Positions 40,700 to 53,230 of a stretch of 64,000 nt of DNA are shown here, piece by piece. Numbering within the stretch: the stretch's first letter is position 1; every line of letters begins with the position of its first letter. The stretch lies in the NCBI RefSeq assembly GCF_044324875.1, contig NZ_CP172185.1. One strand, written 5' to 3'. A program made the position numbers and the translations under genes. This DNA is from Escherichia coli. Its GTDB lineage: Bacteria > Pseudomonadota > Gammaproteobacteria > Enterobacterales > Enterobacteriaceae. The notes beneath the pieces were generated by a model. That model was not told the origin of the DNA. It ran no database searches and saw nothing but the letters and a program-made list of their open reading frames with translations.

Positions 40700-40845
40700 A
40701 ATAGAGTTATTTCAAATATTTATCTTTTTAATCAATGGATTAAATGCTCTTTAACATAATGGATGTGTTGTTTGTGTGATACTGTAAAGTTGGTAGATTG
40801 TGACTGGCTTAAAAAATCATTAATTAATAATAGGTTATGTTTAGA
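40700..40845 (+). promoter_or_regulatory. CRISPR leader (type I-E, E. coli type)
   Basis: AT-rich sequence ending ...gttggtagattgtgactggcttaaaaaatcattaattaataataggttatgtttaga directly abuts repeat 1. It is recognised as the conserved E. coli I-E leader. The 5' boundary is approximate. Confidence 0.75.
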
Positions 40846-41118
40846 GAGTTCCCCGCGCCAGCGGGGATAAACCGCTTCATCTGTCGGGCTAACTGGACAA
40901 AGAAACGAGTTCCCCGCGCCAGCGGGGATAAACCGTCGGTTTGACATCAAAGAAGCCATCAATCAGGGAGTTCCCCGCGCCAGCGGGGATAAACCGGTCT
41001 GGCCATAGGAACAAAGAAATTTGTCTTTGAGTTCCCCACGTCAGCGGGGATAAACCGGACACAGAGCGCCGCTATAGCGCCTATGCCAAGAGTTCCCCGC
41101 GCCAGCGGGGATAAACCA
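40846..41118 (+). CRISPR. Orphan type I-E CRISPR array (5 repeats, 4 spacers), CRISPR2.3 position next to queE
   Basis: 29-bp repeats gagttccccgcgccagcggggataaaccg start at 40846, 40907, 40968, 41029 and 41090. Repeat 4 is a variant (ccccacgtcag) and the last repeat ends in a instead of g. The four 32-bp spacers are cttcatctgtcgggctaactggacaaagaaac, tcggtttgacatcaaagaagccatcaatcagg, gtctggccataggaacaaagaaatttgtcttt and gacacagagcgccgctatagcgcctatgccaa. Confidence 0.97.
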
Positions 41119-41620
41119 CCATATAACCCGTTATCTCTTTCTCAAGTTTTTATATTAGCAGTACTTGTAATAAGCAACATATCCACGTAACACCTCATGT
41201 TCAAAATAGTTCTCCATGCCAGAGAAGTTCACAATTATCGATACAAAAAATTAAATTTAATCAAAGTGTTATTTGTATGATTCTTAAATCGTTAAGAAAT
41301 TTTAATATATTATTTTTTTAATATTAATTAATGCCTGTTAATTTTTTCTTTAGAATAACAGTGTATTTTTTAAGCTTATTATTCATTGATTAAGTAATAA
41401 ATCTGGAAATTTGTCTTTGTTTTGAGGCTAATGAGTGATTTTACATAATCGCCTCTATACGCTGTTGATGAATAGTTCTTATGAATAAAGATATCCAGTT
41501 CATACTTTAAGTGAAAATTGATAAAGTGCGATTCGTATTGTCTTTTATTCTAAAGACATCGAGTGTAGTTAATATTCCTTGTAAAAACAGGGATAAACCG
41601 AACTAGTTAAAGTTTTTATT

Positions 41621-41755: not shown

Positions 41756-43234
41756 TTACGCATTCGACCAGCTCTGGATCGAATCTTCATTCCCCAGCTC
41801 ACCATGCATCACTTCATACGATTTTTTCAGGATCACATCAGTGTGTTTGGTTAGGTCTTTGAAAATGCCTTTATTCATCGCGTTGTAGCGTTTGGCGTTG
41901 CTCTCAACAGGCATAAAGATATCTTTCACGCGAACCATTTTGTCGACAGCCGTTGCGTAATCCGGGTATAGCCCCAGACCTACCGCCGTATTAATCGCTG
42001 CCCCCAGGCTTGCACAACCATTAATGGCGTTACGGCGTGCCGGAAGGTTGAACACGTCGGCAAAAATCTGCATAAACAGATCGCTGTTCGAACCGCCGCC
42101 AGTAATGATCACATGCTTTGCAAAGTGATTCATTTCATTACACATATTGTCGTAATTGTTCTTCAGCGTCAGCGCCACGCTTTCCAGTATCGAACGATAT
42201 ATCCATGCGTAATCCATGCTGGAATCAAAGCCAATCATAATCCCGCGTTTGTACGGTTCCCACGGATTGGTCAGCCAGTCCAGCACCGTCATCAGACCAT
42301 TACAGCCTGGCGGCACACAAGAAGCTTTTTTGTTGAGTAAATCTTCCGGTGAAAGATCCTGCGCCCTGGCATCCTGAATTAACGACTCGCCTAGCATGTC
42401 GCGCAGCCAGCTCACCGTCCACATGCCTTTGCGAATACCGTAACCTTCATACAGCAAGGTTTGCGGAATAGAAGACATAATCGGCCAGTACGCTACCGGA
42501 TCTTTCGGCAGTACTTTGCCGTTCATCATCAACGCGATGTAAGTGCCAAGAGAAATTACCGCAGTTTCATCATCCAGTAACCCGGCTCCCAGTGCTTCTA
42601 CCGGTTTATCACTGGTGGTACAAACAACCGGCAGCCCAGCCGGGAAATGTGTCGCCAGCGCGGCTTGAGGAGTGATATGCCCAAGAACAGTGCCCGGCAT
42701 TTGCACATCAAACAGCATATGACGGGGGATATTAAACTTCTCCATGACTGCGGCATCTTCACTCCATGCCCAGGTCTTATAATCCACCGGCCACTGACCA
42801 AAATAGTTGGCGATATTGTCTTTAAACTCGCCGGTTAAGCGATGCGTCAGATAACCCGAAAAAGAGGTGACATATGCCACGTCAGGATTCGTATGTTCGT
42901 AAGGGCGTGTAACGCGTGCATCCTGCCAGCTAATCAACGGCGCAGCTGGCGTGCCATCGGCTTTCAATAACGCACGGCAGCAACGGATGGATCCCAGACC
43001 AATACCGACAATATCTTCTTTATTTCCGGCAAACTGACTCATCAAATCGTGACCGGCAAAGCATAATGATGCCCATAAATCGTCGTCAGGATGTTCTGCG
43101 GTATCGGCATCTGGCGTGTGCATCGGCTGCAATAAGCCTTTGCCTTCGCAAACCACATTACCTTCCAGATCGTACATCACCACTTTTGTGCTCTGACTTC
43201 CACCATCAATCCCTATGATGTATTTTTTCGACAT
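41756..43234 (-). CDS. ygcE: FGGY-family carbohydrate kinase YgcE (substrate unknown)
   Basis: 492-aa ORF with an FGGY N-terminal motif (IGIDGGSQSTK). Confidence 0.85.
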   Translation of the reverse strand: MSKKYIIGIDGGSQSTKVVMYDLEGNVVCEGKGLLQPMHTPDADTAEHPDDDLWASLCFAGHDLMSQFAGNKEDIVGIGLGSIRCCRALLKADGTPAAPLISWQDARVTRPYEHTNPDVAYVTSFSGYLTHRLTGEFKDNIANYFGQWPVDYKTWAWSEDAAVMEKFNIPRHMLFDVQMPGTVLGHITPQAALATHFPAGLPVVCTTSDKPVEALGAGLLDDETAVISLGTYIALMMNGKVLPKDPVAYWPIMSSIPQTLLYEGYGIRKGMWTVSWLRDMLGESLIQDARAQDLSPEDLLNKKASCVPPGCNGLMTVLDWLTNPWEPYKRGIMIGFDSSMDYAWIYRSILESVALTLKNNYDNMCNEMNHFAKHVIITGGGSNSDLFMQIFADVFNLPARRNAINGCASLGAAINTAVGLGLYPDYATAVDKMVRVKDIFMPVESNAKRYNAMNKGIFKDLTKHTDVILKKSYEVMHGELGNEDSIQSWSNA

Positions 43235-43260
43235 GATTTTTCTCCTGTAATTTTCTGGAC

Positions 43261-44538
43261 TTACTTGCTGCTAGCCATAGCAGGGGCGCTATCAGCAGTA
43301 CGAATTTTTTGGAACAGCAAAAAGGTAAAGACGATCACCATGGCAAGCGCCGCCATGCCCATCAGCCACATATTGCGGTAGGCTTCTGCAGCGGGCAGGG
43401 TGTCTTGCCAGTAGCCGATAATCGGGTAAACGAAGACATCCGGCAGGAATCCAATCACCGAACAAATACCTACCGTGGTGCCCATAATGTAAGACGGTGT
43501 TCTCGCTTCGCCAGGGCAGGCCCAGTACAGCCCGCGTGAGGCGTAACAGGTGAATCCCAGCAGTAAAATCAGGCCAATCCCCATCGCGACCGATTGCGGG
43601 TTAGAGTTCGTGACGAGCAGGGCAGTTAACGCCAGCAAGCCGAGTACGGAAAGGATTTGGATCACGCGGGTAGGGGATTTCACTTTGCTGTAGGTGGTGA
43701 TAATGCCACCAAGTGGGCCGCACAGTGCGCGGAAGATTTTGTTGATCACAATCCCCATGTAGCTCGCCGCCACCAGCGACATGCCGTACATTTCGGTCAG
43801 ATAGTTGGTGGAGTAACTCAGAATGGCGTAGATGGTGAAGACACCAAAAATCACCATGCTGCAATACCAGGTGGTGCTGATGCGCAAAACAGCCAGGATG
43901 TCGCTAAGCTGGAATGACTGTTTTTCTTCGTTATTGGTATTGCACAGGTTGTTGTTATCGCTAACAAAAAACCAACACAAAATGCCCAGCAGAATGTAAA
44001 CCACACTATAGATAATAATGACCGTTTTCAGGCTGGCGCTGTCATCCGGTGCAAAGCGAGAAAAGACCCACATGGTAAACACCGCCAGCGACATTACACC
44101 GACGCCGCGCAGCCCTTCCATCCAGCCCATAATTTTCCCTTGCTCGCTATGATCGCCCAGCAACGAGGCGGCTTTAATCGACACCGACCACAGCATTAAA
44201 ATAGTGGTTATCGCAAAGGCGACCTGAATACAGAGCATTACCCACAGCGGTGGATATGTTGCCATTAACAGACCCAGTAATCCGGTAATGATCATCGCGG
44301 AAGTAATCATTTTGCGGTGTGAAAATTTATCGGCAATAACGCCGCTGGGGGCATAAAGAATAATAGCCGCAATACCAAAGGTACTCATTATTAAACCTAT
44401 CTCGGTATTGCTGAATCCCATAAATTTCGCCATGGGAATTTGATAAATATAACGTAAATAAGCCAGGTCGAAACTAACGCCGCCGCTAAAACTAATTATC
44501 GCGAGGGTTATCCAACGGCGATATGAGTTGTGTTGCAT
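43261..44538 (-). CDS. yqcE: MFS transporter YqcE (substrate unknown)
   Basis: 425-aa polytopic membrane ORF upstream of, and on the same strand as, ygcE. Confidence 0.85.
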   Translation of the reverse strand: MQHNSYRRWITLAIISFSGGVSFDLAYLRYIYQIPMAKFMGFSNTEIGLIMSTFGIAAIILYAPSGVIADKFSHRKMITSAMIITGLLGLLMATYPPLWVMLCIQVAFAITTILMLWSVSIKAASLLGDHSEQGKIMGWMEGLRGVGVMSLAVFTMWVFSRFAPDDSASLKTVIIIYSVVYILLGILCWFFVSDNNNLCNTNNEEKQSFQLSDILAVLRISTTWYCSMVIFGVFTIYAILSYSTNYLTEMYGMSLVAASYMGIVINKIFRALCGPLGGIITTYSKVKSPTRVIQILSVLGLLALTALLVTNSNPQSVAMGIGLILLLGFTCYASRGLYWACPGEARTPSYIMGTTVGICSVIGFLPDVFVYPIIGYWQDTLPAAEAYRNMWLMGMAALAMVIVFTFLLFQKIRTADSAPAMASSK

Positions 44539-44562
44539 ATCGTATTCCCATTTGTAATAGAC

Positions 44563-44610
44563 AAAAAAAAGAGAAAAGTAAGCCGCCCTTTCAGGTGGAT
44601 TACTTTTCTC
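44563..44610 (-). terminator. Intrinsic terminator inside the yqcE leader (candidate attenuator)
   Basis: Minus-strand RNA reads GAGAAAAGUAA-UCCACCUGAAAGGGCGGC-UUACUUUUCUC followed by UUUUUUUU. The basal stem is a perfect 11 bp. The U-tract ends 24 nt before the yqcE ATG. Confidence 0.75.
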
Positions 44611-44716
44611 AGGTCTCTAGTAATTGCAATAAGAAATAACATGGAAAGCAGTGGTGTTGTGTGAGAGTAATCACGCTTCTGCTTTTTAAAATTATTTGAC
44701 AATTCGAATATCACAC

Positions 44717-44732
44717 TGTGATTACGATCACA
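44717..44732. promoter_or_regulatory. Consensus CRP box in the divergent yqcE / ygcW control region
   Basis: tgtgattacgatcaca is a perfect TGTGA-N6-TCACA palindrome centred between the two divergent operons. A possible -10 element (tatgat, 44749-44754) lies downstream on the + strand. Confidence 0.6.
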
Positions 44733-44785
44733 TTAGCGATTATGCCCTTATGATAAAAATTATCTCCAGTTACCAGAGATAATGA

Positions 44786-44832
44786 GAAAGGTAACTTCCC
44801 TCTCGCGGGGGAAGTTACCTTTCTTTTTTTTT
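44786..44832 (+). terminator. Intrinsic terminator inside the ygcW leader (candidate attenuator)
   Basis: GAAAGGUAACUUCCC-ucucgcgg-GGGAAGUUACCUUUC forms a 15-bp perfect stem followed by nine U. The U-tract ends 24 nt before the ygcW ATG. There is no upstream + strand gene for it to terminate. Confidence 0.8.
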
Positions 44833-44856
44833 GCCTTACGGAAATTGGAGCTAACT

Positions 44857-45642
44857 ATGTCAATCGAATCTCTCAATGCGTTCTCAATGGATTTTTTCTC
44901 CCTGAAAGGCAAAACCGCAATTGTTACCGGCGGGAATAGCGGTTTAGGCCAGGCATTTGCCATGGCGCTGGCCAAAGCAGGCGCAAATATCTTTATTCCA
45001 AGCTTCGTTAAAGATAACGGCGAAACAAAGGAAATGATTGAAAAACAGGGTGTTGAGGTGGACTTCATGCAGGTGGATATCACCGCAGAAGGCGCGCCGC
45101 AGAAGATAATCGCCGCCTGTTGCGAACGTTTCGGTACCGTCGATATTCTGATTAACAATGCCGGTATTTGTAAGCTGAATAAGGTGCTGGACTTCGGTCG
45201 TGCCGACTGGGACCCGATGATTGATGTGAACCTGACCGCCGCATTCGAGTTAAGCTATGAAGCTGCAAAAATTATGATCCCGCAGAAAAGCGGTAAAATC
45301 ATTAATATCTGTTCATTATTCTCTTACTTAGGTGGACAATGGTCACCTGCATATTCTGCCACTAAACATGCTCTTGCCGGATTCACCAAAGCTTATTGTG
45401 ATGAACTAGGTCAATATAATATTCAGGTAAATGGTATTGCCCCTGGCTATTATGCAACAGATATTACGCTGGCGACACGCAGTAATCCAGAAACTAATCA
45501 GCGCGTTCTTGATCATATTCCGGCAAACCGTTGGGGCGATACTCAGGATTTAATGGGCGCAGCCGTATTCCTCGCAAGTCCGGCTTCAAATTATGTTAAC
45601 GGGCATTTATTAGTGGTCGATGGCGGTTATTTAGTGCGCTAA
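44857..45642 (+). CDS. ygcW: Short-chain dehydrogenase/reductase YgcW (KduD-like)
   Basis: The ORF track starts at 44782, inside the leader terminator. The start is placed at the ATG at 44857 (MSIESLNAF...), preceded by SD ggag. SDR motifs TGGNSGLG and YSATK are present. Confidence 0.85.
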   Translation: MSIESLNAFSMDFFSLKGKTAIVTGGNSGLGQAFAMALAKAGANIFIPSFVKDNGETKEMIEKQGVEVDFMQVDITAEGAPQKIIAACCERFGTVDILINNAGICKLNKVLDFGRADWDPMIDVNLTAAFELSYEAAKIMIPQKSGKIINICSLFSYLGGQWSPAYSATKHALAGFTKAYCDELGQYNIQVNGIAPGYYATDITLATRSNPETNQRVLDHIPANRWGDTQDLMGAAVFLASPASNYVNGHLLVVDGGYLVR

Positions 45643-45711
45643 TCCATAACGGTGGTTTCTGTTTTCTCTTATTAATGATTATTCCATTTTTATTATCAGG
45701 AAGGAATTACT

Positions 45712-47166
45712 ATGTCTTTATCTCGCGCAGCGATTGTCGACCAGCTAAAGAAAATTGTTGGTGCAGATCGCGTAATTACCGATGAAACAGTATTAAAGAA
45801 GAACAGTATTGACCGTTTTCGCAAATTTCCGGATATTCATGGCATTTATACTTTGCCGATTCCGGCAGCGGTCGTAAAACTCGGTTCCACAGAACAAGTA
45901 TCCCGTGTGCTGAATTTTATGAATGCGCACAAAATTAACGGTGTGCCGCGTACCGGTGCTTCCGCTACCGAAGGTGGGCTGGAAACCGTTGTGGAAAACT
46001 CGGTGGTGCTCGACGGCTCTGCCATGAATCAAATCATTAATATTGATATTGAGAATATGCAGGCCACGGCGCAATGCGGAGTTCCGCTGGAAGTGCTGGA
46101 AAACGCGTTGCGTGAAAAAGGTTACACCACGGGGCATTCTCCGCAGTCAAAGCCGCTGGCGCAGATGGGCGGCCTGGTAGCAACCCGCAGTATCGGGCAG
46201 TTCTCCACACTCTACGGCGCAATCGAAGATATGGTCGTTGGTCTGGAAGCAGTATTGGCTGATGGCACCGTAACACGCATTAAAAACGTACCACGCCGCG
46301 CGGCAGGCCCGGACATTCGTCACATCATCATCGGCAACGAAGGTGCATTGTGCTATATCACTGAAGTAACAGTGAAAATCTTTAAGTTCACCCCGGAAAA
46401 CAACCTCTTCTACGGCTATATCCTGGAAGACATGAAAACCGGCTTCAACATCCTACGTGAAATCATGGTGGAAGGGTATCGTCCGTCGATCGCTCGTTTG
46501 TATGACGCTGAAGATGGCACCCAACACTTCACCCATTTTGCCGACGGAAAATGCGTGCTGATCTTTATGGCTGAAGGTAACCCTCGCATTGCGAAGGCGA
46601 CGGGCGAAGGGATTGCTGAAATCGTGGCACGTTACCCGCAATGCCAGCGAGTGGACAGCAAGCTGATCGAAACCTGGTTTAACAACCTGAACTGGGGACC
46701 GGATAAAGTAGCTGCCGAACGTGTGCAGATCCTCAAAACCGGCAACATGGGCTTTACCACCGAAGTGTCCGGCTGCTGGAGCTGCATTCACGAAATCTAC
46801 GAAAGCGTTATTAACCGTATTCGTACCGAGTTCCCGCACGCCGACGACATCACCATGCTGGGCGGTCACTCCTCTCATAGCTATCAGAACGGCACCAACA
46901 TGTACTTCGTCTACGACTACAACGTCGTTGACTGTAAGCCGGAAGAGGAAATCGACAAGTACCACAATCCGCTCAACAAAATCATCTGCGAAGAAACCAT
47001 TCGCCTCGGTGGTTCGATGGTGCACCACCACGGTATCGGTAAACATCGCGTTCACTGGAGCAAACTGGAACACGGCAGCGCGTGGGCGTTGCTGGAAGGG
47101 CTGAAAAAGCAGTTCGATCCTAACGGCATTATGAATACGGGTACTATCTATCCGATTGAAAAATAA
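45712..47166 (+). CDS. ygcU: FAD-linked oxidase YgcU (GlcD / alkyl-DHAP-synthase-like)
   Basis: 484-aa ORF with FAD-binding PCMH-type domain features, recognised as YgcU. Confidence 0.85.
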   Translation: MSLSRAAIVDQLKKIVGADRVITDETVLKKNSIDRFRKFPDIHGIYTLPIPAAVVKLGSTEQVSRVLNFMNAHKINGVPRTGASATEGGLETVVENSVVLDGSAMNQIINIDIENMQATAQCGVPLEVLENALREKGYTTGHSPQSKPLAQMGGLVATRSIGQFSTLYGAIEDMVVGLEAVLADGTVTRIKNVPRRAAGPDIRHIIIGNEGALCYITEVTVKIFKFTPENNLFYGYILEDMKTGFNILREIMVEGYRPSIARLYDAEDGTQHFTHFADGKCVLIFMAEGNPRIAKATGEGIAEIVARYPQCQRVDSKLIETWFNNLNWGPDKVAAERVQILKTGNMGFTTEVSGCWSCIHEIYESVINRIRTEFPHADDITMLGGHSSHSYQNGTNMYFVYDYNVVDCKPEEEIDKYHNPLNKIICEETIRLGGSMVHHHGIGKHRVHWSKLEHGSAWALLEGLKKQFDPNGIMNTGTIYPIEK

Positions 47167-47259
47167 TGTGTCAGGCAGCGTTCCGCGATGACGGAGCGTT
47201 GCCTTTTCGGCTTCTCAGGCGAGAAGCCGTTCTTATTACCGGACAATGAAGGGGTAAAG

Positions 47260-48597
47260 ATGAACACTTCACCGGTGCGAATGGATGATTTACCGCTTAA
47301 CCGTTTTCACTGTCGAATTGCTGCGCTCACTTTCGGCGCACACCTGACCGACGGTTATGTTCTAGGCGTCATTGGTTACGCCATTATTCAGCTTACGCCC
47401 GCCATGCAACTGACGCCGTTTATGGCGGGTATGATCGGCGGCTCGGCGCTCCTTGGTTTGTTTCTTGGCAGCCTGGTTCTTGGGTGGATCTCCGACCATA
47501 TTGGTCGGCAAAAAATCTTCACCTTCAGCTTTTTGCTGATTACGCTCGCTTCGTTCTTGCAATTTTTTGCCACCACGCCAGAGCATCTTATTGGATTGCG
47601 CATTTTGATCGGCATTGGTCTGGGAGGCGATTACTCAGTCGGTCACACCTTGCTGGCTGAATTTTCCCCGCGCCGCCATCGCGGTATTTTGCTGGGCGCA
47701 TTCAGTGTGGTGTGGACCGTAGGCTATGTGCTGGCAAGTATTGCCGGACATCACTTTATTACCGAAAGCCCGGAGGCCTGGCGCTGGCTGCTGGCATCAG
47801 CGGCGTTACCAGCCTTGCTGATTACGCTGCTACGTTGGGGCACGCCGGAATCGCCACGCTGGCTACTGCGCCAGGGGCGTTTTGCTGAAGCTCACGCTAT
47901 CGTGCATCGCTACTTTGGTCCCCATGTTTTACTGGGCGATGAAGTGGCAACGGCGACCCATAAACACATCAAAACATTGTTCTCTTCGCGCTACTGGCGG
48001 CGCACAGCGTTTAACAGCGTCTTCTTTGTCTGCCTCGTAATCCCATGGTTTGTGATTTATACCTGGCTGCCAACTATCGCCCAAACTATTGGTCTGGAAG
48101 ATGCGCTGACAGCCAGCCTGATGCTTAATGCGTTGTTAATTGTGGGCGCGCTGCTGGGATTAGTTCTGACGCACCTGCTGGCACATCGCAAATTTTTGCT
48201 GGGAAGTTTTTTGCTGCTGGCGGCAACGCTGGTCGTGATGGCCTGTTTGCCTTCCGGCAGTTCATTAACGCTGCTGCTTTTTGTTCTCTTCAGCACCACC
48301 ATTTCGGCAGTCAGTAATCTGGTGGGCATTTTGCCTGCGGAAAGTTTTCCTACTGACATTCGCTCGCTGGGCGTCGGTTTTGCCACCGCCATGAGTCGGT
48401 TGGGCGCGGCAGTAAGTACGGGCCTGCTGCCGTGGGTGCTGGCGCAGTGGGGAATGCAAGTCACCTTATTGCTCCTGGCGGCAGTGTTGTTGGTTGGTTT
48501 TGTCGTGACCTGGCTATGGGCACCAGAAACCAAAGCACTCCCGCTGGTGGCGGCGGGAAATGTAGGAGGTGCGAATGAACATTCTGTTAGCGTTTAA
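47260..48597 (+). CDS. ygcS: MFS sugar-porter-like transporter YgcS
   Basis: The start is placed at the ATG at 47260 (MNTSPVRMDD...), preceded by SD aagggg. Sugar-porter signature PESPRWL. 445 aa. Confidence 0.85.
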   Translation: MNTSPVRMDDLPLNRFHCRIAALTFGAHLTDGYVLGVIGYAIIQLTPAMQLTPFMAGMIGGSALLGLFLGSLVLGWISDHIGRQKIFTFSFLLITLASFLQFFATTPEHLIGLRILIGIGLGGDYSVGHTLLAEFSPRRHRGILLGAFSVVWTVGYVLASIAGHHFITESPEAWRWLLASAALPALLITLLRWGTPESPRWLLRQGRFAEAHAIVHRYFGPHVLLGDEVATATHKHIKTLFSSRYWRRTAFNSVFFVCLVIPWFVIYTWLPTIAQTIGLEDALTASLMLNALLIVGALLGLVLTHLLAHRKFLLGSFLLLAATLVVMACLPSGSSLTLLLFVLFSTTISAVSNLVGILPAESFPTDIRSLGVGFATAMSRLGAAVSTGLLPWVLAQWGMQVTLLLLAAVLLVGFVVTWLWAPETKALPLVAAGNVGGANEHSVSV

Positions 48598-49354
48598 AGC
48601 CGAACCGGATGTCGGAATGCTGGCGGAAAAAGAGTGGCAGGCGGCGGCTCAGGGTAATAGCGGACCGGATGTTTCGCTTCTGCGAAGTTTACTCGGTGCT
48701 GATGAACAGGCTGCCGCCGCGCTGCTGTTGGCGCAGAGAAAAAACGGTACGTCGATGTCTTTAACCGCGTTGAGCATGGGGGATGAACGGGCGTTGCACT
48801 GGCTGCGCTATCTCATGGCTCTTGGGTTTGAGGAAGCTGTATTGCTGGAGACGGTGGCAGATCTGCGCTTTGCGCCGGAATTTGTCGCTCGCCATATTGC
48901 CGAATGGCAGCGTCAGAATCCGCTGGATCTGATAATTACCGGCTGCCAAAGCAGCGAAGGGCAGAATGGGCAAACGCCATTTTTGCTGGCGGAAATGCTG
49001 GGCTGGCCCTGCTTCACCCAGGTGGAGCGTTTTACTCTCGACGCGCCGTTTATCACCCTTGAACAGCGTACTGAAAACGGGCTGCGCTGTTGCCGGGTTC
49101 GCTTGCCTGCGGTGATTGCCGTGCGTCAGTGCGGTGAAGTGGCCTTGCCAGTACCGGGAATGCGTCAGCGAATGGCGGCGGGGAAAGCAGCAATTATCCG
49201 TAAAACTGTTGCTGCCGAATTGCCAGCGATGCTGTGTCTGCAACTGGCAAGAGCAGAGCAACAACGCGGAGCGACGCTGATTGATGGGCAAACGGTAGCA
49301 GAAAAAGCGCAAAAGCTATGGCAGGACTATTTACGCCAAAGGATGCAGCCATGA
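48575..49354 (+). CDS. ygcR: Electron-transfer flavoprotein beta-subunit-like YgcR (FixA-like)
   Basis: The ATG at 48575 is preceded by SD aggagg and overlaps the 3' end of ygcS. 259 aa, recognised as YgcR. Confidence 0.8.
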   Translation: MNILLAFKAEPDVGMLAEKEWQAAAQGNSGPDVSLLRSLLGADEQAAAALLLAQRKNGTSMSLTALSMGDERALHWLRYLMALGFEEAVLLETVADLRFAPEFVARHIAEWQRQNPLDLIITGCQSSEGQNGQTPFLLAEMLGWPCFTQVERFTLDAPFITLEQRTENGLRCCRVRLPAVIAVRQCGEVALPVPGMRQRMAAGKAAIIRKTVAAELPAMLCLQLARAEQQRGATLIDGQTVAEKAQKLWQDYLRQRMQP

Positions 49355-50211
49355 ATATCGCAATTGTGACAATAAATCAGGAGAATGCCGCAATAGCGAG
49401 CTGGCAGGCGGCGCAGGATTTCAGCGGTTGTACCCTGGCGCACTGGAAGATTGAACCTCAGCCCGCTGTGGCGGAACAGGTGCTGGATGCGCTGGTGGAA
49501 CAGTGGCAGCGAACGCCTGCGGACGTTGTTCTCTTTCCGCCGGGAACGTTTGGCGATGAACTGTCGACCCGGCTGGCCTGGCGTTTACATGGTGCAAGCA
49601 TCTGCCAGGTGACTTCGTTAGATATTCCAACCGTAAGCGTGCGCAAATCCCACTGGGGAAATGCGCTAACGGCGACGCTGCAAACAGAAAAACGCCCGCT
49701 ATGCCTTTCCCTGGCGCGTCAGGCGGGAGCAGCGAAAAACGCCACGTTGCCCTCTGGTATGCAGCAACTGAACATTGTCCCAGGTGCGCTTCCCGACTGG
49801 CTGGTTAGCATAGAGAATCTGAAAAATGTTAGCCGCGACCCATTAGCTGAAGCCAGACGGGTGCTGGTGGTGGGGCAGGGCGGAGAGGCAGATAACCAGG
49901 AAATCGCTATGCTGGCAGAAAAGCTGGGAGCCGAAGTGGGCTACAGTCGGGCACGAGTGATGAACGGTGGCGTTGATGCCGAAAAAGTGATTGGTATTTC
50001 TGGACATCTGCTGGCACCTGAGGTGTGTATTGTTGTTGGCGCTTCCGGCGCAGCAGCGTTAATGGCGGGCGTACGCAATAGCAAGTTTGTGGTGGCGATT
50101 AATCATGACGCCAGCGCGGCGGTATTTTCACAGGCAGATGTTGGCGTGGTTGATGACTGGAAAGCGGTGCTGGAGGCTCTGGTGACAAACATTCACGCAG
50201 ATTGCCAATAA
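49351..50211 (+). CDS. ygcQ: Electron-transfer flavoprotein alpha-subunit-like YgcQ (FixB-like)
   Basis: The ATG at 49351 overlaps the ygcR stop (ATGA). 286 aa with an ETF-alpha C-terminal FAD-binding region (GISG...VGASGA). Confidence 0.8.
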   Translation: MNIAIVTINQENAAIASWQAAQDFSGCTLAHWKIEPQPAVAEQVLDALVEQWQRTPADVVLFPPGTFGDELSTRLAWRLHGASICQVTSLDIPTVSVRKSHWGNALTATLQTEKRPLCLSLARQAGAAKNATLPSGMQQLNIVPGALPDWLVSIENLKNVSRDPLAEARRVLVVGQGGEADNQEIAMLAEKLGAEVGYSRARVMNGGVDAEKVIGISGHLLAPEVCIVVGASGAAALMAGVRNSKFVVAINHDASAAVFSQADVGVVDDWKAVLEALVTNIHADCQ

Positions 50212-50212
50212 C

Positions 50213-50322
50213 GTGCTGCCGGATGATCCTGCCTACGGTTCTGGGCTGGGGACTTGTAAGCCTGATAAGACGCGTCAAGCGTCGTATCAGGCGCTGAATG
50301 TCGGATGTGGCGTGCAGCCTAC
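50213..50322. repeat. REP/BIME-type extragenic palindromes
   Basis: gcctgataagacgcgtcaagcgtcgtatcaggc plus flanking gccggatg / gtcggatgtggcgtgcagcctac units lie between the convergent ygcQ and ygcP. Confidence 0.7.
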
Positions 50323-50357
50323 AAATCACACAAATTCAACTCGTTACGAGTATCCCG

Positions 50358-50933
50358 TCAAAGCAATTTTTTCGCTAACGTCCAGACCCCGGTATTCGTG
50401 GTGGAAAGCGCCACAACACCCGCGTTAATCGCATTACGCGCATCTTCTTCATCGCACACCAGCCCGCCGGCAATCAGCGGTTGGCGGATTTTCTCCGTCA
50501 CCCAGCCTAGCACTTTAGGCATACAGCCTGGCAGGATCTCAATACAATCCGGATTCGATTGCGCAACTTGCTTATCAATGTTGTGAAACGAAATCGAATC
50601 AACAATAAACAGGCGATGAATACAGAAAAAACCTTCCGCTCTTGCCGCTTTTAGCATCGATGCTTTCGTGCTGATAATGCCGTCCGCCTCGGTCACCAGT
50701 TTCAGAAACTGAATCACCACTTCTTTGTTCGATGCGCCTTCCAGCAAATCAACATGAATAAAGGCATATTTTCCGGCGTTTTTAATCTTTTTAACGATAT
50801 TACTGATGGTGCAGATATTGCCGTACAACACGGAAATAAACTGGCATTCAGAGTCGATTGCCAGTTGCAGGCTGGCATTATCTTTAACGGCAGCAATCAC
50901 CGGATTCTGGCGGAGCAGGTGTAAGAGGGGCAT
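50358..50933 (-). CDS. ygcP: GlpP-like (glycerol-3-phosphate-responsive antiterminator family) protein YgcP
   Basis: 191-aa ORF recognised as YgcP. The family assignment is from memory of the annotation; no HMM was run. Confidence 0.8.
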   Translation of the reverse strand: MPLLHLLRQNPVIAAVKDNASLQLAIDSECQFISVLYGNICTISNIVKKIKNAGKYAFIHVDLLEGASNKEVVIQFLKLVTEADGIISTKASMLKAARAEGFFCIHRLFIVDSISFHNIDKQVAQSNPDCIEILPGCMPKVLGWVTEKIRQPLIAGGLVCDEEDARNAINAGVVALSTTNTGVWTLAKKLL

Positions 50934-50949
50934 AAATTATCCTTATTAT

Positions 50950-51210
50950 TTATCCAAAGCGGTAGGTGATGCCGAATCCGGAAGGCGGATAGTGCCACTG
51001 TTGTAGCGTTTTTTCATCGCACAGCAAACGGCAGGTGCCGCACTCCAGACAATTACGATAATCAACGTGCAAATCACCCTCCGGTGTGAGCGAAAAAAGA
51101 CCAGCCGGACAAGCGTTAATCAACTGTTGTGCCGTCTGGCGCTCAACGGAGTCTGCCGGAACAATATGTGGCGCATCAGCAGCGCGCCAGAGATTACGGG
51201 CTACAGACAT
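50950..51210 (-). CDS. ygcO: FixX-like ferredoxin YgcO
   Basis: The start is placed at the ATG at 51210 (MSVARNLW...), giving 86 aa. Cys cluster CLECGTC. It overlaps the ygcN 3' end by 10 nt. Confidence 0.8.
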   Translation of the reverse strand: MSVARNLWRAADAPHIVPADSVERQTAQQLINACPAGLFSLTPEGDLHVDYRNCLECGTCRLLCDEKTLQQWHYPPSGFGITYRFG

Positions 51211-52472
51211 CGAATACTCCTGACAACATCGCCCGCCAGATGCCACAGGCCATGACGACGTAAATGACGCCAGAATAACTGGCGCAGCGGTGGAACAGGT
51301 TTATCACCCTGATCCCATAAATCACGGGAAATATCCTGCATTAACGCAGGCCACGCCCGATACCAGCCAGGGCGTTGCAAAAGCGCCGGAACATGCTGAT
51401 AACGCTGTAAAACATCCCACAGCAGGCTGCGCTCTACGTTGTGATGATAAAGCGGAAACAGATTTTGCGGCTCGCGGTGCTGGCAGGCGCTTATTAGCGT
51501 TTGTGCCGCCGCCTGCGCGCCAGTTAGCGCCATATCCATGCCGCGCACGGAAATTCCGGTATTGACGCAACTGCGCAACGCATCGCCCACCAGCAGTCAG
51601 CCGTTACCGGCGTATTGCATCGGCATACTGTGTAAGCCACCTTCTGGCACCAGATGCGCACCATACTCCAGTGATTCCGTGTTTTTGATAAGCGGGCGCA
51701 CTGCCGGATGCGTTTTAAAGCGAGCCAGCAGCTCGCTTGCCGGAACACGACTTTGCGTAAGGGAAGAGAGCGGGCAAACAATCCCTAACGAGAGCGTTTG
51801 TTGATTAGTATAAAGAAATGCGCCGCCGGGTAAGTCATCACAGATCCCGCCGCTGAACAGCAACGCTGCGCCTTCGTTATTCTCCAGATGAAAACGTTCT
51901 TCAATAGCGGATGTTTCCAGCGACAGCACTTCTTTGATCCCCAACGCCATCGCTTCGCCAGCAGGACGAGTCACTAACCCGTGACGTTCAGCCAGGACGC
52001 TGTTGGCACCTTCTGCCAGCACCACATAACGGGCGCGGAGAATATCGTCACCACAAATGACACCACACACCCTGCCGTTTTCTTCATACAGCGCATCCAC
52101 CGTCGCACCGGGGATGCATTCGACACCTTCTTTTTCGGCTTCGGCAACCAGCCACGGATCGAACCGTGCACGTAATACACTCCAGGATTCACCGCCGGGC
52201 TGTAAGCTGGAAAACGTCGTTGCGCCATCCGGCGTTAGCAGAGAAAGGCTTTCGTGAGTGATGCGTCGTTCAAGAGGCGCGGTCAGATGAAATTGCGGGA
52301 GGAGTTCCGCGAGCGCATGGGTGTATAAACGCCCGCCGGAAAGATTTTTGCTGCCGGGGATTTCAGCGCGTTCCAGTAACAGAACGGACAAACCTGCCCG
52401 CGCGCAGCGTAAAGCACAAGCGGTACCTGCTATACCCGCACCAATAATAATAATGTCGCAGTTGTCTTCCAT
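51201..52472 (-). pseudogene. ygcN: FixC-like ETF-quinone oxidoreductase ygcN interrupted by an in-frame TGA
   Basis: ORFs 51597..52502 and 51201..51590 are in the same frame and are separated only by a TGA at 51597-51599 (...MQYAGNG*LLVGDALRSC...). The N-terminus has an FAD-binding GxGxxG motif (IIIIGAGIAG). The start is inferred at the ATG at 52472 (MEDNCDIIIIG). Confidence 0.75.
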
Positions 52473-52549
52473 GTCATGCCCCAGATATCCAGAACACAAC
52501 ACCCTAACATGGCGTTACTTAAGGGAAATTGACCGCCGACACACTCTTA

Positions 52550-52915
52550 TCATTCGCCGCGATAGATACAGCCTGCAGTACAGGTTTCTTTTACCATCAC
52601 CGCACTTAACAGCGGCACAACGGGTTTAACCTGATCCCAAATCCATTTTGCTAAAACTTCGCTGGTTGGGTTTTCCAGACCTGGAATATCATTGAGATAA
52701 TGGTGATCGAGGCGCTCATAAGTTGGCTTAAACGCCGCTTTCAGTTCAGCGAAATCGATAATCCAGCCCGTATGCGGATCGACCTCCCCGGTAATTTCCA
52801 GTCGCACCATAAAGGAATGCCCGTGCAGGCGACCACATTTATGCCCTTCCGGGACGTGTGGTAAGCGGTGAGCGGCTTCGAAGGTGAAATCTTTAAATAA
52901 CGTGGTGGACATCAT
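52550..52915 (-). CDS. queD: 6-carboxy-5,6,7,8-tetrahydropterin synthase QueD
   Basis: The start is placed at the ATG at 52915 ([18 protein letters not shown]...), giving 121 aa. Recognised as YgcM/QueD. Confidence 0.9.
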
Positions 52916-53230
52916 AATTTCTCTACAGGACGATAAAACCGCCGTAGAGTACCGGAAAGGCTGTTTTTTCGCATTATCTAAAACGACTTTGTTGCGCAAA
53001 ATCGCTGATTTATCTTATTGATGGGCAATATTCATTTGTTTTTCATTGGGTTGGTTAATCTATTTTGTTGTTAAAGACTATTGCTAAAACAGGTTAGTCG
53101 ATTTGGTTATTAGTTATCGCTATCCCGTCTTTAATCCACACCGTTCACCCCGTTAACCTTACCTTCTCTTCTGTTTTATGGGCGCTGACAGGGCGCAGAA
53201 ACAGCTTTGCTTACTGGAACATAACGACGC

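Follow-up and report, generated by a model that had tools for sequence, protein, structure and literature searches.

In the 64,000-nt stretch of Escherichia coli DNA analysed here (the window, to which all positions refer), the divergent operons yqcE-ygcE and ygcW-ygcU-ygcS-ygcR-ygcQ are each preceded by a leader RNA in which the 3′ strand of a short conserved hairpin, P1, also forms the base of an intrinsic terminator. The evidence as a whole is probably best explained by a proposed switch in which YgcP, a protein of the GlpP family, would turn on both operons by blocking termination in their leaders. The data given below directly support the terminators, the short RNAs, the binding of CRP and the family of YgcP, and they show that each of the two alternative helices is conserved and covaries; to these findings the proposal adds, as predictions, the binding of YgcP, its dependence on a ligand and the identity of that ligand. 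The computational checks that had been suggested with the original prediction, i.e. folding of the leaders, covariation, Term-seq 3′ ends and the match of YgcP to its family profile, all came out in its favour.

Two divergent CRP promoters in the ygc intergenic region

The operon yqcE-ygcE (41756-44538, minus strand) encodes an MFS transporter and an FGGY-family kinase, and the operon ygcW-ygcU-ygcS-ygcR-ygcQ (44857-50211, plus strand) encodes an SDR, a FAD-linked oxidase, an MFS transporter, ETF beta and ETF alpha. The 318-bp region between them consists of two divergent class-II-type CRP promoters. The perfect TGTGA-N6-TCACA site TGTGATTACGATCACA at 44717-44732 is centered at 44724.5, that is at −41.5 from the transcription start of ygcW (published 5′ end 44766), and a second CRP-like site (TGTGAgagtaaTCACg / TGTGAGAGTAATCACG; 44661-44676) centered at 44668.5 takes the same −41.5 position relative to the yqcE start (published 5′ end 44627). 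The original prediction had placed one perfect box between the two leaders; this box is present at 44717-44732, but it is not shared, each promoter having a box of its own. Published CRP binding data (ChIP in ETEC, genomic SELEX, footprinting and an in vitro Kd of 1.7 nM) concern the perfect box, and the second box is CRP-like by sequence. Both boxes are retained in Enterobacterales intergenic regions, each at a fixed offset from its own leader, and yqcE-ygcE was listed as Crp-activated in a transcriptome study. Likely extended −10 elements, TGaTAAAAA for ygcW (44751-44759, plus strand) and TGtTATTTC for yqcE (44633-44641, minus strand), were assigned from their position relative to the published 5′ ends (44766 and about 44627, respectively) and from the conservation of TGnTAAAAA/T and ATGTTATTT.

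A small hairpin overlaps the terminator in both leaders

The ygcW leader RNA (44766-44832, plus strand) extends from the transcription start, taken from Table S5 of Romero et al. and converted to window coordinates, to the end of the U tract and is identical to the published sRNA ecr2774, and the yqcE leader RNA (44563-44627, minus strand) is the sRNA ecr2775, detected by RNA-seq and confirmed by northern blot. A covariance model of the module matched the two leaders at 44760-44832 (77.6 bits) and 44563-44633 (72.8 bits), respectively. Each leader is about 65 nt long and starts 2-3 nt ahead of the conserved P1 module, a 6-7 bp helix (AGUUACC/GGUAACU in ygcW, AUUACU/AGUAAU in yqcE) closed by a loop of 14-15 nt carrying two GAGA boxes. 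In the ygcW leader, the 5′ strand AGUUACC (44768-44774; supported by sequence, folding and covariation) and the 3′ strand GGUAACU (44790-44796; supported by sequence, folding and pair counts) flank the loop AGAGAUAAUGAGAAA (44775-44789), which was defined from alignments; the two strands lie where they had been predicted to lie and are complementary. In the yqcE leader, the 5′ strand AAUUACU (paired part AUUACU; 44619-44625), identified from sequence, folding and pair counts, is followed by the loop AGAGACCUGAGAAA (44605-44618), identified from sequence and alignments, and by the 3′ strand AGUAAUC (paired part AGUAAU; 44598-44604).

In both RNAs the P1 3′ strand, which constitutes the switch segment, is common to P1 and to the 5′ arm of the terminator, so that the basal 13 nt of this arm are the second GAGA box plus the P1 3′ strand; in the ygcW leader the second GAGA box (from 44784) doubles as the first 6 nt of the arm. 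The 3′ half of P1 as the 5′ base of the terminator is the classic antiterminator/terminator overlap.

Both terminator hairpins were found at the positions previously given for them. That of the ygcW leader (terminator 44784-44832, plus strand; hairpin 44784-44825) has a stem of 19 bp counting one terminal G·U, and not 15 bp as first described (44784-44802/44807-44825, loop 44803-44806), followed by Us to 44832. That of the yqcE leader (terminator 44563-44610, minus strand; hairpin 44610 to 44571) has the predicted perfect 11-bp base (44610-44600/44581-44571), interrupted pairs at the apex and a run of eight Us (44570-44563). In both cases 24 nt separate the last U of the tract from the start codon (ATG at 44857 for ygcW and at 44538 for yqcE), as had been noted; this spacing holds for the two E. 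coli leaders but varies among other species and is incidental.

Folding of the leaders, as had been recommended, gave energies far better than those of shuffled sequences, with z-scores of −5.5 for the whole ygcW leader and −4.3 for the whole yqcE leader (0/200 shuffles equalling the native value in either case) and of −6.7 and −4.0, respectively, for the 67-nt leaders. P1 alone is predicted to be much less stable (−1.4 to −6.7 kcal/mol) than the terminator (−20 to −31 kcal/mol): a truncated ygcW leader forms its P1 hairpin at −6.7 kcal/mol, and P1 of yqcE is very weak, at −1.4 kcal/mol being no better than shuffles. A word common to the leaders, TGAGAAARGTAA, occurs four times in the window against 0.39 expected, and a terminator scan returned 8 sites against 1.8 ± 1.5 expected.

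Other interpretations of the region were considered and set aside. An in-frame ATG at 44782, which would open a 286-aa ORF, was rejected as the start of a leader peptide, as it has no room for a Shine-Dalgarno sequence and is replaced by AAG or ACG in many species. A MITE-like element with terminal inverted repeats was also rejected, since the arms are always sense leaders of the flanking operons, conserved promoters and CRP sites lie inside and the spacer length varies. A paper on riboswitch entropy that names ygcW proved irrelevant, its windows being 3.5-4.2 kb away.

Both leader terminators are used in vivo

Published transcript data agree with the expectation of premature 3′ ends at the two hairpins. 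Term-seq 3′ ends fall at about 44819 (plus strand), inside the 3′ arm of the ygcW hairpin, with an intrinsic-terminator score of 15.8 and 40,640 reads, and at about 44574 (minus strand), in the yqcE hairpin, with a score of 11.4 and 1,557 reads; neither is in a Rho region. In addition, RNAs of 73 nt and 63 nt detected by RNA-seq or northern blotting, one of them northern-confirmed, span the module through to the terminator U tract. The Term-seq ends are 11-14 nt short of the end of the U tract, within the 3′ arm, which requires exonuclease trimming as an explanation, and the RNA-seq ends do reach the U tract. Both leader terminators are thus used in vivo.

The Term-seq ends had been published as “orphan” 3′ ends, 2900311(−) and 2900556(+), which correspond to the same RNAs as ecr2774 and ecr2775. 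The original statement that no description of this regulon was known stands insofar as no paper was found on the function of YgcP or joining YgcP to these leaders, but the leader RNAs themselves had already been detected and left unexplained; the earlier publications list them only as detected transcripts or 3′ ends, assign no function, propose no structure and make no connection with YgcP.

Both alternative helices are conserved and show compensatory changes

Alignment of the interval among related species, as originally suggested, showed that both stems are conserved with compensatory changes from Escherichia to Pantoea, Erwinia and Serratia. In the terminator helix, 94.9% of cells were paired compared to 88.6% in shuffles, none of 500 shuffles being as high, with double changes in 9 of the 16 pairs and pairing of 57-75% in slid registers. 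The pairing of AGUUACC with GGUAACU, put forward earlier as a possible antiterminator, is preserved at six positions in 94-100% of 125 distinct instances and falls to 2% one position beyond the helix. Double changes were found at three positions (C:G to U:A, G:C to A:U and A:U to G:C, or the reverse), the change from A:U to G:C recurring in Listeria, Fodinisporobacter and Apirhabdus, and G·U wobbles are tolerated. As MAFFT misplaced loops that were 3 nt longer (19 rows out of register in one alignment), P1 pairs were also counted with a register-aware script. In a formal test, 0/500 shuffles reached the observed P1 values for percentage paired, double-change cells or covariation score, and slid registers gave 16-56%; these shuffle tests are inflated by related sequences, two of five measures of covariation fell short of significance and the P1 stem is largely conserved rather than covarying. 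In the loop, the alignments show no or almost no variation in the G-A-G of the first GAGA box and at the beginning of the second.

YgcP belongs to the GlpP family and accompanies the module

The proposed antiterminator is encoded by ygcP (50358-50933, minus strand), the only regulator-like gene in the cluster; no CAT/PRD protein was found among the nine cluster ORFs scanned with Pfam or in the RefSeq annotation of the cluster. The original assignment of YgcP to the GlpP family was borne out by a full-length match to the G3P_antiterm profile PF04309 (YgcP residues 12-184 covering all 173 positions of the profile; E 1.4e-62, score 210.6 bits, cut-off 27), the sole Pfam match of the protein. The closest solved structure is 3KTS, the GlpP of Listeria monocytogenes (phmmer E 1.2e-27), and 1VKF gave an E value of 8e-15.

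Of 67 distinct Enterobacterales intergenic regions, 66 have the module upstream of the homologous operons; outside this order, it lies directly upstream of homologous operons in Vibrio and in six loci from five Bacillota genera (Thalassobacillus, Sporomusa, Fodinisporobacter, Listeria and Vallitalea). Transporters linked to YgcP-type loci are of the MFS, BCCT or OpuA type. A PF04309 YgcP homologue lies near the leaders in every locus examined with enough flank, including all 66 module-bearing Enterobacterales regions, most loci having been picked via YgcP. In the reverse direction, a motif-anchored metagenome scan dominated by Enterobacterales recovered ygc loci, with YgcP in the 24 loci whose contigs reach the ygcP position, and revealed new, compactly organized loci consisting of ygcP, promoter, leader and operon. 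Motif matches in eight marine phage-like contigs and two singletons had no convincing terminator or ygc gene and were taken as chance. The YgcP-anchored Enterobacterales loci carry exactly two strong model matches each and no third. Likewise, no third copy serving the ygcNOP operon was seen upstream of ygcN by eye, nor did the model detect one in the window or in any locus searched, and BLAST revealed no further module targets elsewhere in E. coli.

Proposed mechanism and alternative explanations

In the proposed mechanism, each CRP promoter would transcribe a leader of about 65 nt beginning just before P1. By default, P1 being weak and the terminator strong, the terminator would win, so that transcription stops and the short RNAs ecr2774 and ecr2775 are made. 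Effector-bound YgcP would bind and stabilize P1, thereby withholding the base of the terminator stem and allowing RNA polymerase to read into yqcE-ygcE and ygcWUSRQ. By analogy with GlpK, glycerol-3-phosphate and GlpP, the effector is most likely to be a phosphorylated product of the FGGY kinase YgcE. The linked genes (an FGGY kinase, an SDR, a FAD-linked oxidase with ETF, and transporters, and not glpF/K/D) make a phosphorylated compound other than glycerol-3-phosphate the more likely effector.

It is unlikely that YgcP acts on the leaders mainly through mRNA stability or translation rather than termination. B. subtilis GlpP reportedly controls the stability of glpD mRNA in addition to antitermination (Glatz et al. 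1996), and the two modes are compatible, but the overlap between P1 and the terminator base, conserved everywhere, is the signature of a termination switch.

The leaders might also be small riboswitches in which P1 and its loop bind a metabolite directly, with YgcP acting elsewhere. A conserved structured element overlapping a terminator is a feature of transcriptional riboswitches, and very small riboswitch aptamers exist. This reading is nevertheless quite improbable, as a hairpin of 6-7 bp whose purine loop is unstructured leaves little room for a ligand pocket, a PF04309 gene goes with the module in every locus with enough flank and the Rfam 15 covariance models gave no relevant match at E ≤ 1 in window positions 43000-53000 (a weak rliE match over 44658-44862, E 0.74, was taken as chance). 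Furthermore, B. subtilis glpD, which has the same layout, requires the GlpP protein, induction being lost in a ΔglpP strain (PMC9604022).

Very little weight can be given to the view that the hairpins simply end independent trans-acting sRNAs or act as constitutive insulators, the operons using other promoters and YgcP being irrelevant. Such a view would draw on ecr2774 and ecr2775 having first been reported as sRNAs and being fairly abundant in LB. Against it, the module, in whichever phylum it is found, always directly precedes an operon of the same gene set and has the sense orientation; the start codon is near, most species having a distance of 19-48 nt from the terminator (some yqcE leaders of Serratia have 55-90 nt, and the presence of an insertion brings the distance to 150 nt); there is no other conserved promoter-like block between terminator and ATG; and the conserved antiterminator alternative would have no role in a plain sRNA.

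Finally, an inverted repeat, GTTAC-N15-GTAAC, does lie just 3′ of the transcription start, but that it should be a DNA operator for a dimeric repressor at +3 to +31 is extremely improbable, since the tolerance of G·U-type “pairs” (T:G in 30 instances, G:T in 4) and the compensatory, non-symmetric changes are consistent with pairing in RNA and inconsistent with recognition of half-sites, the spacer length ranges between 14 and 20 nt and the cluster has no conserved DNA-binding regulator.

Ten E. coli K-12 genes lacking known function would gain a concrete mechanism through antitermination by YgcP, which would also explain two published orphan sRNAs and Term-seq 3′ ends. If it is correct, the YgcP ligand would be the inducer of the ten-gene ygc catabolic cluster and thus a key to its de-orphaning, with leader read-through a possible reporter to screen for the pathway substrate. 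The RNA module is defined enough for immediate mutational tests and could be used as a regulon marker in other bacteria.

Comparison with known antitermination systems

The closest parallel is B. subtilis GlpP, which belongs to the same family, PF04309, and mediates glycerol-3-phosphate-dependent antitermination at glpD, glpFK and glpTQ. In both systems a terminator lies between the promoter and the first gene, and the gene sets include an FGGY kinase, a flavin-dependent dehydrogenase and a transporter. The ygc leaders were compared with seven GlpP-type leaders, of which one is the glpD 5′ UTR of B. subtilis and the other six are glpD/glpF leaders of Priestia, Lysinibacillus and Paenibacillus; in L. 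monocytogenes and L. grandensis the canonical glpP gene is located after mutL, away from the glp targets, so that these loci could not be used. All the leaders compared carry an AGUUA box at the 5′ end, followed by two GAGA-type boxes separated by 4 nt; a short helix encloses these boxes, and the second of them supplies the base of the terminator 5′ arm. This likeness is one of layout and not of a defined binding site, since no nucleotide-level map of the B. subtilis GlpP site on RNA is known to us. The enclosing helix differs, being longer in the ygc leaders (GUUAC/GUAAC, 6-7 bp) than in the GlpP-type leaders (GGUC/GACC-type, 3-5 bp), and in the ygc leaders, unlike the GlpP type, the 5′ box itself takes part in pairing. 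The ygc system is further distinguished by its Gram-negative host, its additional CRP-dependent initiation, its two divergent leaders within one intergenic region and its linked enzymes, which are not GlpF/K/D; YgcP itself is only distantly alignable to L. monocytogenes GlpP. Rfam gave no relevant match on the Bacillus-type glp leaders, and neither leader RNA type is present in Rfam.

There is perhaps an even chance that the hairpin with two GAGA boxes is the element recognized throughout the PF04309 family, defining a leader RNA class absent from Rfam and spread over Bacillota and Gammaproteobacteria, with specificity set by the helix and the 5′ box. It would suggest a shared RNA recognition design for a family whose RNA-binding mode is poorly understood. 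The specificity of paralogues would then reside in GUUAC/GUAAC for the YgcP type and in AGUUAAUA plus the GGUC/GACC-type helix for the GlpP type, so that two PF04309 members could operate in parallel within a cell, L. grandensis being a species that has both. The ygc system would be the first of the GlpP type in a Gram-negative organism.

BglG is the textbook example of an E. coli protein stabilizing an antiterminator hairpin, and YgcP would be the second classical protein-dependent leader antiterminator in this species. As in the BglG/SacY/LicT systems with their RAT elements (E. coli bgl, B. subtilis sac and lic), a small antiterminator hairpin would have its 3′ part overlapping the terminator 5′ arm. 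YgcP, however, has no CAT or PRD domain, its RNA element is unrelated in sequence and the signal controlling it is presumably a small-molecule effector instead of PTS phosphorylation. HutP, TRAP and PyrR also resemble the ygc system in using short repeated purine motifs beside or overlapping a terminator or antiterminator; TRAP and PyrR promote termination rather than prevent it. HutP is described as using XAG-rich regions (PMC2425495). The folds of these three proteins are unrelated to that of YgcP, and in the ygc leaders the GAGA motif occurs only twice, inside the loop of a hairpin.

Gene content of the ygc locus

The window covers the E. coli ygc region, where Pfam searches identified ygcE (41756-43234, minus strand) as an FGGY kinase and yqcE (43261-44538, minus strand) as an MFS transporter. 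On the plus strand, ygcW (44857-45642) encodes an SDR and is followed by ygcU (FAD-linked oxidase), ygcS (MFS transporter) and ygcR and ygcQ (ETF subunits), with the operon ending at 50211. The minus-strand gene ygcP (50358-50933) comes next and, by gene order, ygcO and ygcN lie beyond it on the same strand, the ferredoxin-like YgcO giving only sub-threshold 4Fe-4S matches. YgcP, described in the original prediction as a GlpP-family protein, matched the G3P_antiterm profile PF04309 over its whole length (E 1.4e-62), and its family assignment thus holds. No paper was found that deals with what YgcP does or with how the ygc cluster is regulated.

Other features of the locus were also recorded. 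The convergent ygcQ-ygcP gap (50259-50341, minus strand) matched the Rfam family naRNA4 weakly, its 29.5 bits falling short of the gathering score, and resembles REP elements (GCCTGATAAGACGCG...CGTCGTATCAGGCG, GCCGGATG). In the homologous K-12-type locus (L001, 8324-8717), RefSeq annotates a CRISPR repeat array in the interval from queE to ygcE, equivalent by homology to about 40720-41120 of the window, and the Term-seq table has 3' ends inside such repeats (2904041, 2904075 and 2904326). In E. coli ECMA0423 (L006) and Shigella flexneri SFBU1023 (L008), ygcN through ygcS are kept and ygcU, ygcW, yqcE and ygcE have no matches; a deletion appears to have removed this portion of the cluster, both leaders with it, and to have spared ygcP.

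Leader terminators and published transcripts

The ygcW leader (plus strand) contains a 19-bp terminator stem (44784-44802/44807-44825) followed by Us to 44832, and the yqcE leader (minus strand) a terminator with an 11-bp perfect base (44610-44600/44581-44571), an interrupted apex and a U8 tract (44570-44563). Both hairpins lie where originally predicted, each ending 24 nt before its own ATG in E. coli. Folding z-scores of the leaders ranged from -4.0 to -6.7, with no shuffle equally good, and a consensus scan found 8 terminator-like sites vs 1.8 expected. RefSeq annotates nothing at the leaders. A mechanical ORF list includes a 286-aa ORF (44782-45642, plus strand) starting at an in-frame ATG inside the ygcW leader; this ATG lies within AUGAGAAAGG, part of both P1 (the proposed antiterminator helix, see below) and the terminator, is not conserved in other species and could mislead automatic calling of the ygcW start codon.

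Term-seq of MG1655 in LB (Adams et al. 2021, PMC7815308) reported 3' ends at 2900311(-), 38 nt before ygcW (40,640 reads), and 2900556(+), 36 nt before yqcE (1,557 reads), both classed as "orphan" and neither within a Rho region, with intrinsic-terminator scores of 15.8 and 11.4, respectively (>3 suggests intrinsic termination). Since the sequence column of that table spans -50 to +10, as verified on the sokX row, the ends could be placed at ...GGGGGAAGUUACC^UUUCUUUUUU and ...GGCGGCUUACUUUU^CUCUUUUUUU. Both fall inside the 3' arms of the hairpins, 11-14 nt short of the end of the U-tract, and are read as trimmed terminated leaders, an interpretation given as a caveat and not as proof. Romero et al. 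2014 (PMC4681348) described two novel sRNAs here: ecr2774, of 73 nt, from the ygcW strand, and ecr2775, of 63 nt, from the yqcE strand and also seen on northern blots. That these are free-standing sRNAs is less likely than that they are terminated leaders. After conversion with an offset of +1976, which we take to separate U00096.2 from U00096.3 and which fits the record length and puts the ecr2775 3' end on the seventh U, ecr2774 runs from 44766 to about 44839 and ecr2775 from 44627 to 44564, with 5' ends 2-3 nt before the AGUUACC and AAUUACU boxes and 3' ends at the terminators.

Each promoter has its own CRP site

Judged from the published 5' end, the perfect CRP box predicted between the leaders is centred on 44724.5, at -41.5 of the ygcW start, and CRP binding there is already documented by prediction, genomic SELEX, ChIP in ETEC and an in vitro Kd of 1.7 nM. 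The yqcE-ygcE operon is listed as Crp-activated. This part of the prediction was therefore already known. The single box, however, was not borne out. A second CRP-like box, TGTGAgagtaaTCACg = TGTGAGAGTAATCACG (44661-44676, centre 44668.5), absent from the original prediction and conserved in Enterobacterales intergenic regions, lies at -41.5 of the yqcE start, so that each divergent promoter has its own class-II-type site. Across these regions each box keeps a fixed offset from its own leader, while the spacer between the boxes varies from about 20 to 120 bp.

Conservation in Enterobacterales

A YgcP-anchored scan gave 80 loci, and tblastn maps showed the divergent yqcE/ygcW pair and linkage to ygcP throughout Enterobacterales. 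The terminator was present in 134/134 leaders (67 distinct intergenic regions), and each leader of 66 regions contained the full module, with the consensus (C)AGUUACY, AGAGAY, 2-4 nt, (A/U)GAGAAARGUAAC, followed by an apex that varies, the 3' arm and U7-9. The GAGAAA/UUUCUC base is invariant in sequence and the apex varies with compensatory changes. In a model-based alignment of 101 hits, 94.9% of terminator cells were paired vs 88.6% in shuffles (0/500) and 57-75% in slid registers, with double changes at 9/16 pairs. The covariance model gave exactly two strong hits, and no third copy, in every Enterobacterales locus searched that spans the intergenic region, except for L048; in E. coli the leaders occur at this locus only (5063/5426 genomes).

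The exception, Limnobaculum eriocheiris (L048, 13880-13957), has an intergenic region shrunk to 136 bp, in which a single hairpin stands between A9 and T9 and the two promoters, CRP boxes and P1 boxes are gone. Recombination between the two leader terminators, which are inverted and nearly the same in sequence (identical in a sister species, L050), appears to have caused the deletion. In Klebsiella spallanzanii (L017) and Citrobacter youngae (L018), an insertion of about 126 bp (AATCCCGATGAGCTTACTGTAGTAAGTGATTCGGGTGAG...), presumably resembling an ERIC/IRU-type repeat, separates the terminator of the yqcE leader from the start codon and lengthens the spacing from about 24 to 150 nt.

A proposed antiterminator helix and mechanism

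The 5' box is complementary to the first 6-7 nt 3' of GAGAAA, and the pairing originally suggested for the ygcW leader is kept in most instances. In a register-aware count of 125 distinct instances, six P1 positions were paired in 94-100% (position 1, C:G 29/U:A 88; 2, C:G 125; 3, A:U 119/G:U 4/G:C 2; 4, U:A 101/U:G 24; 5, U:A 119/U:G 6; 6, G:C 87/A:U 36), the seventh in 66% and the next position out in 2%. In a formal test on 87 segments, P1 exceeded shuffles in three measures (percentage paired, covariation score and double-change cells; 0/500 for each) and scored above every slid register (16-56%), despite 19 long-loop rows being out of register; two measures counting pairs or pair types were not significant. 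Listeria, Fodinisporobacter and Apirhabdus all show an A:U-to-G:C change, accompanied in Apirhabdus by a matching change in the terminator 3' arm.

When leaders of four species were folded without the 3' terminator arm, the minimum-free-energy structure was the P1 hairpin each time (-6.7, -1.4, -5.8 and -5.1 kcal/mol). P1 is far weaker than the terminator, and a stabilising factor is therefore needed. We propose that CRP-dependent initiation would be followed by default termination at about +65, and that effector-bound YgcP would stabilise P1, so that the 13 nt at the base of the terminator stem are kept from pairing and polymerase reads through. YgcE, as a kinase, probably makes the effector, by analogy with GlpK (also FGGY), glycerol-3-phosphate and GlpD, which the ygc cluster would parallel. 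A riboswitch, with the leader itself as sensor, is less likely than YgcP-mediated antitermination, as are a DNA operator and an effect on stability or translation only.

The module outside Enterobacterales

In the two Bacillota loci of the first scan, the model gave weak hits placed exactly in front of the homologous operon's first gene, each preceded by a good sigma-A-type promoter; Listeria has UAGUUGCUAGAGAAUUGAGAUAAGCGACU and Vallitalea AGAUUACUAGAGAGCAGAGAAAAGUAAUC. Four further YgcP homologues (54-59% identity; Vibrio hannami, Thalassobacillus, Sporomusa and Fodinisporobacter) share a gene set of SDR, FAD oxidase, FGGY kinase and transporter, to which ETF is added in some, and the module lay upstream of these operons in 4/4 loci (69, 64, 62.5, 39, 39, 32 and 21 bits). 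Conversely, metagenome contigs scanned with the motif alone yielded 80 loci, of which about 68 were ygc loci, with a YgcP match in the 24 whose contigs reach the ygcP position. Three new divergent loci had ygcP immediately upstream of promoter and leader, and the one such contig long enough showed the SDR operon after the leader. The exceptions, none with a convincing terminator, were two singletons and eight near-identical marine phage-like contigs.

These eight contigs (L091, L119, L124, L127, L133, L157, L164 and L170) have AGATTACTAGAGGGCACGAGAAAAGTAATTT ahead of an ORF that resembles a terminase small subunit, with a weak A/U hairpin only and neither YgcP nor ygc genes, probably a chance match in AT-rich DNA. 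YgcP-linked clusters outside Enterobacterales (L082, L083, L084, L085 and L138 5573-6319) have BCCT or OpuA-type transporters instead of MFS, and the leader in L138 is followed by an ORF for an MttB-like methyltransferase; these hint at substrates that, in some lineages, may belong with quaternary amines or osmolytes. In Listeria monocytogenes (L086) and L. grandensis (L211), canonical glpP sits between mutS-mutL, which it follows directly, and pflB, away from the glp genes. L. grandensis also has a YgcP-like paralogue within its own operon (L081), and two PF04309 proteins therefore coexist there.

Comparison with GlpP targets

The leader RNAs and the CRP site were already known as isolated observations; what appears to be new is their connection in a GlpP-type antitermination regulon, together with the definition of the conserved RNA module. 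Rfam has no family for ygc-type or GlpP-type leaders. The leaders were compared with the B. subtilis glpD 5' UTR (PMC9604022, Table S4), from a system in which a delta-glpP strain is not inducible (PMC9604022), and with glpD and glpF leaders adjoining canonical glpP in Priestia, Lysinibacillus and Paenibacillus. All of these GlpP-type leaders start with AAGUUAAUA (AAGUUCAUA in one), and most have two GGAGA/UGAGA boxes, 4 nt apart, within a 3-5 bp helix; in 3/7 the first box, or each of the two, deviates from the GAGA consensus. The second box forms the base of the terminator 5' arm (GGAGAGACCAC...GUGGUCUCUUUUU); the E. coli ygcW leader reads CAGUUACCA-GAGA-UAAU-GAGA-AAGGUAAC... The two groups of leaders are thus alike in layout but differ in helix sequence and in the enzymes controlled.
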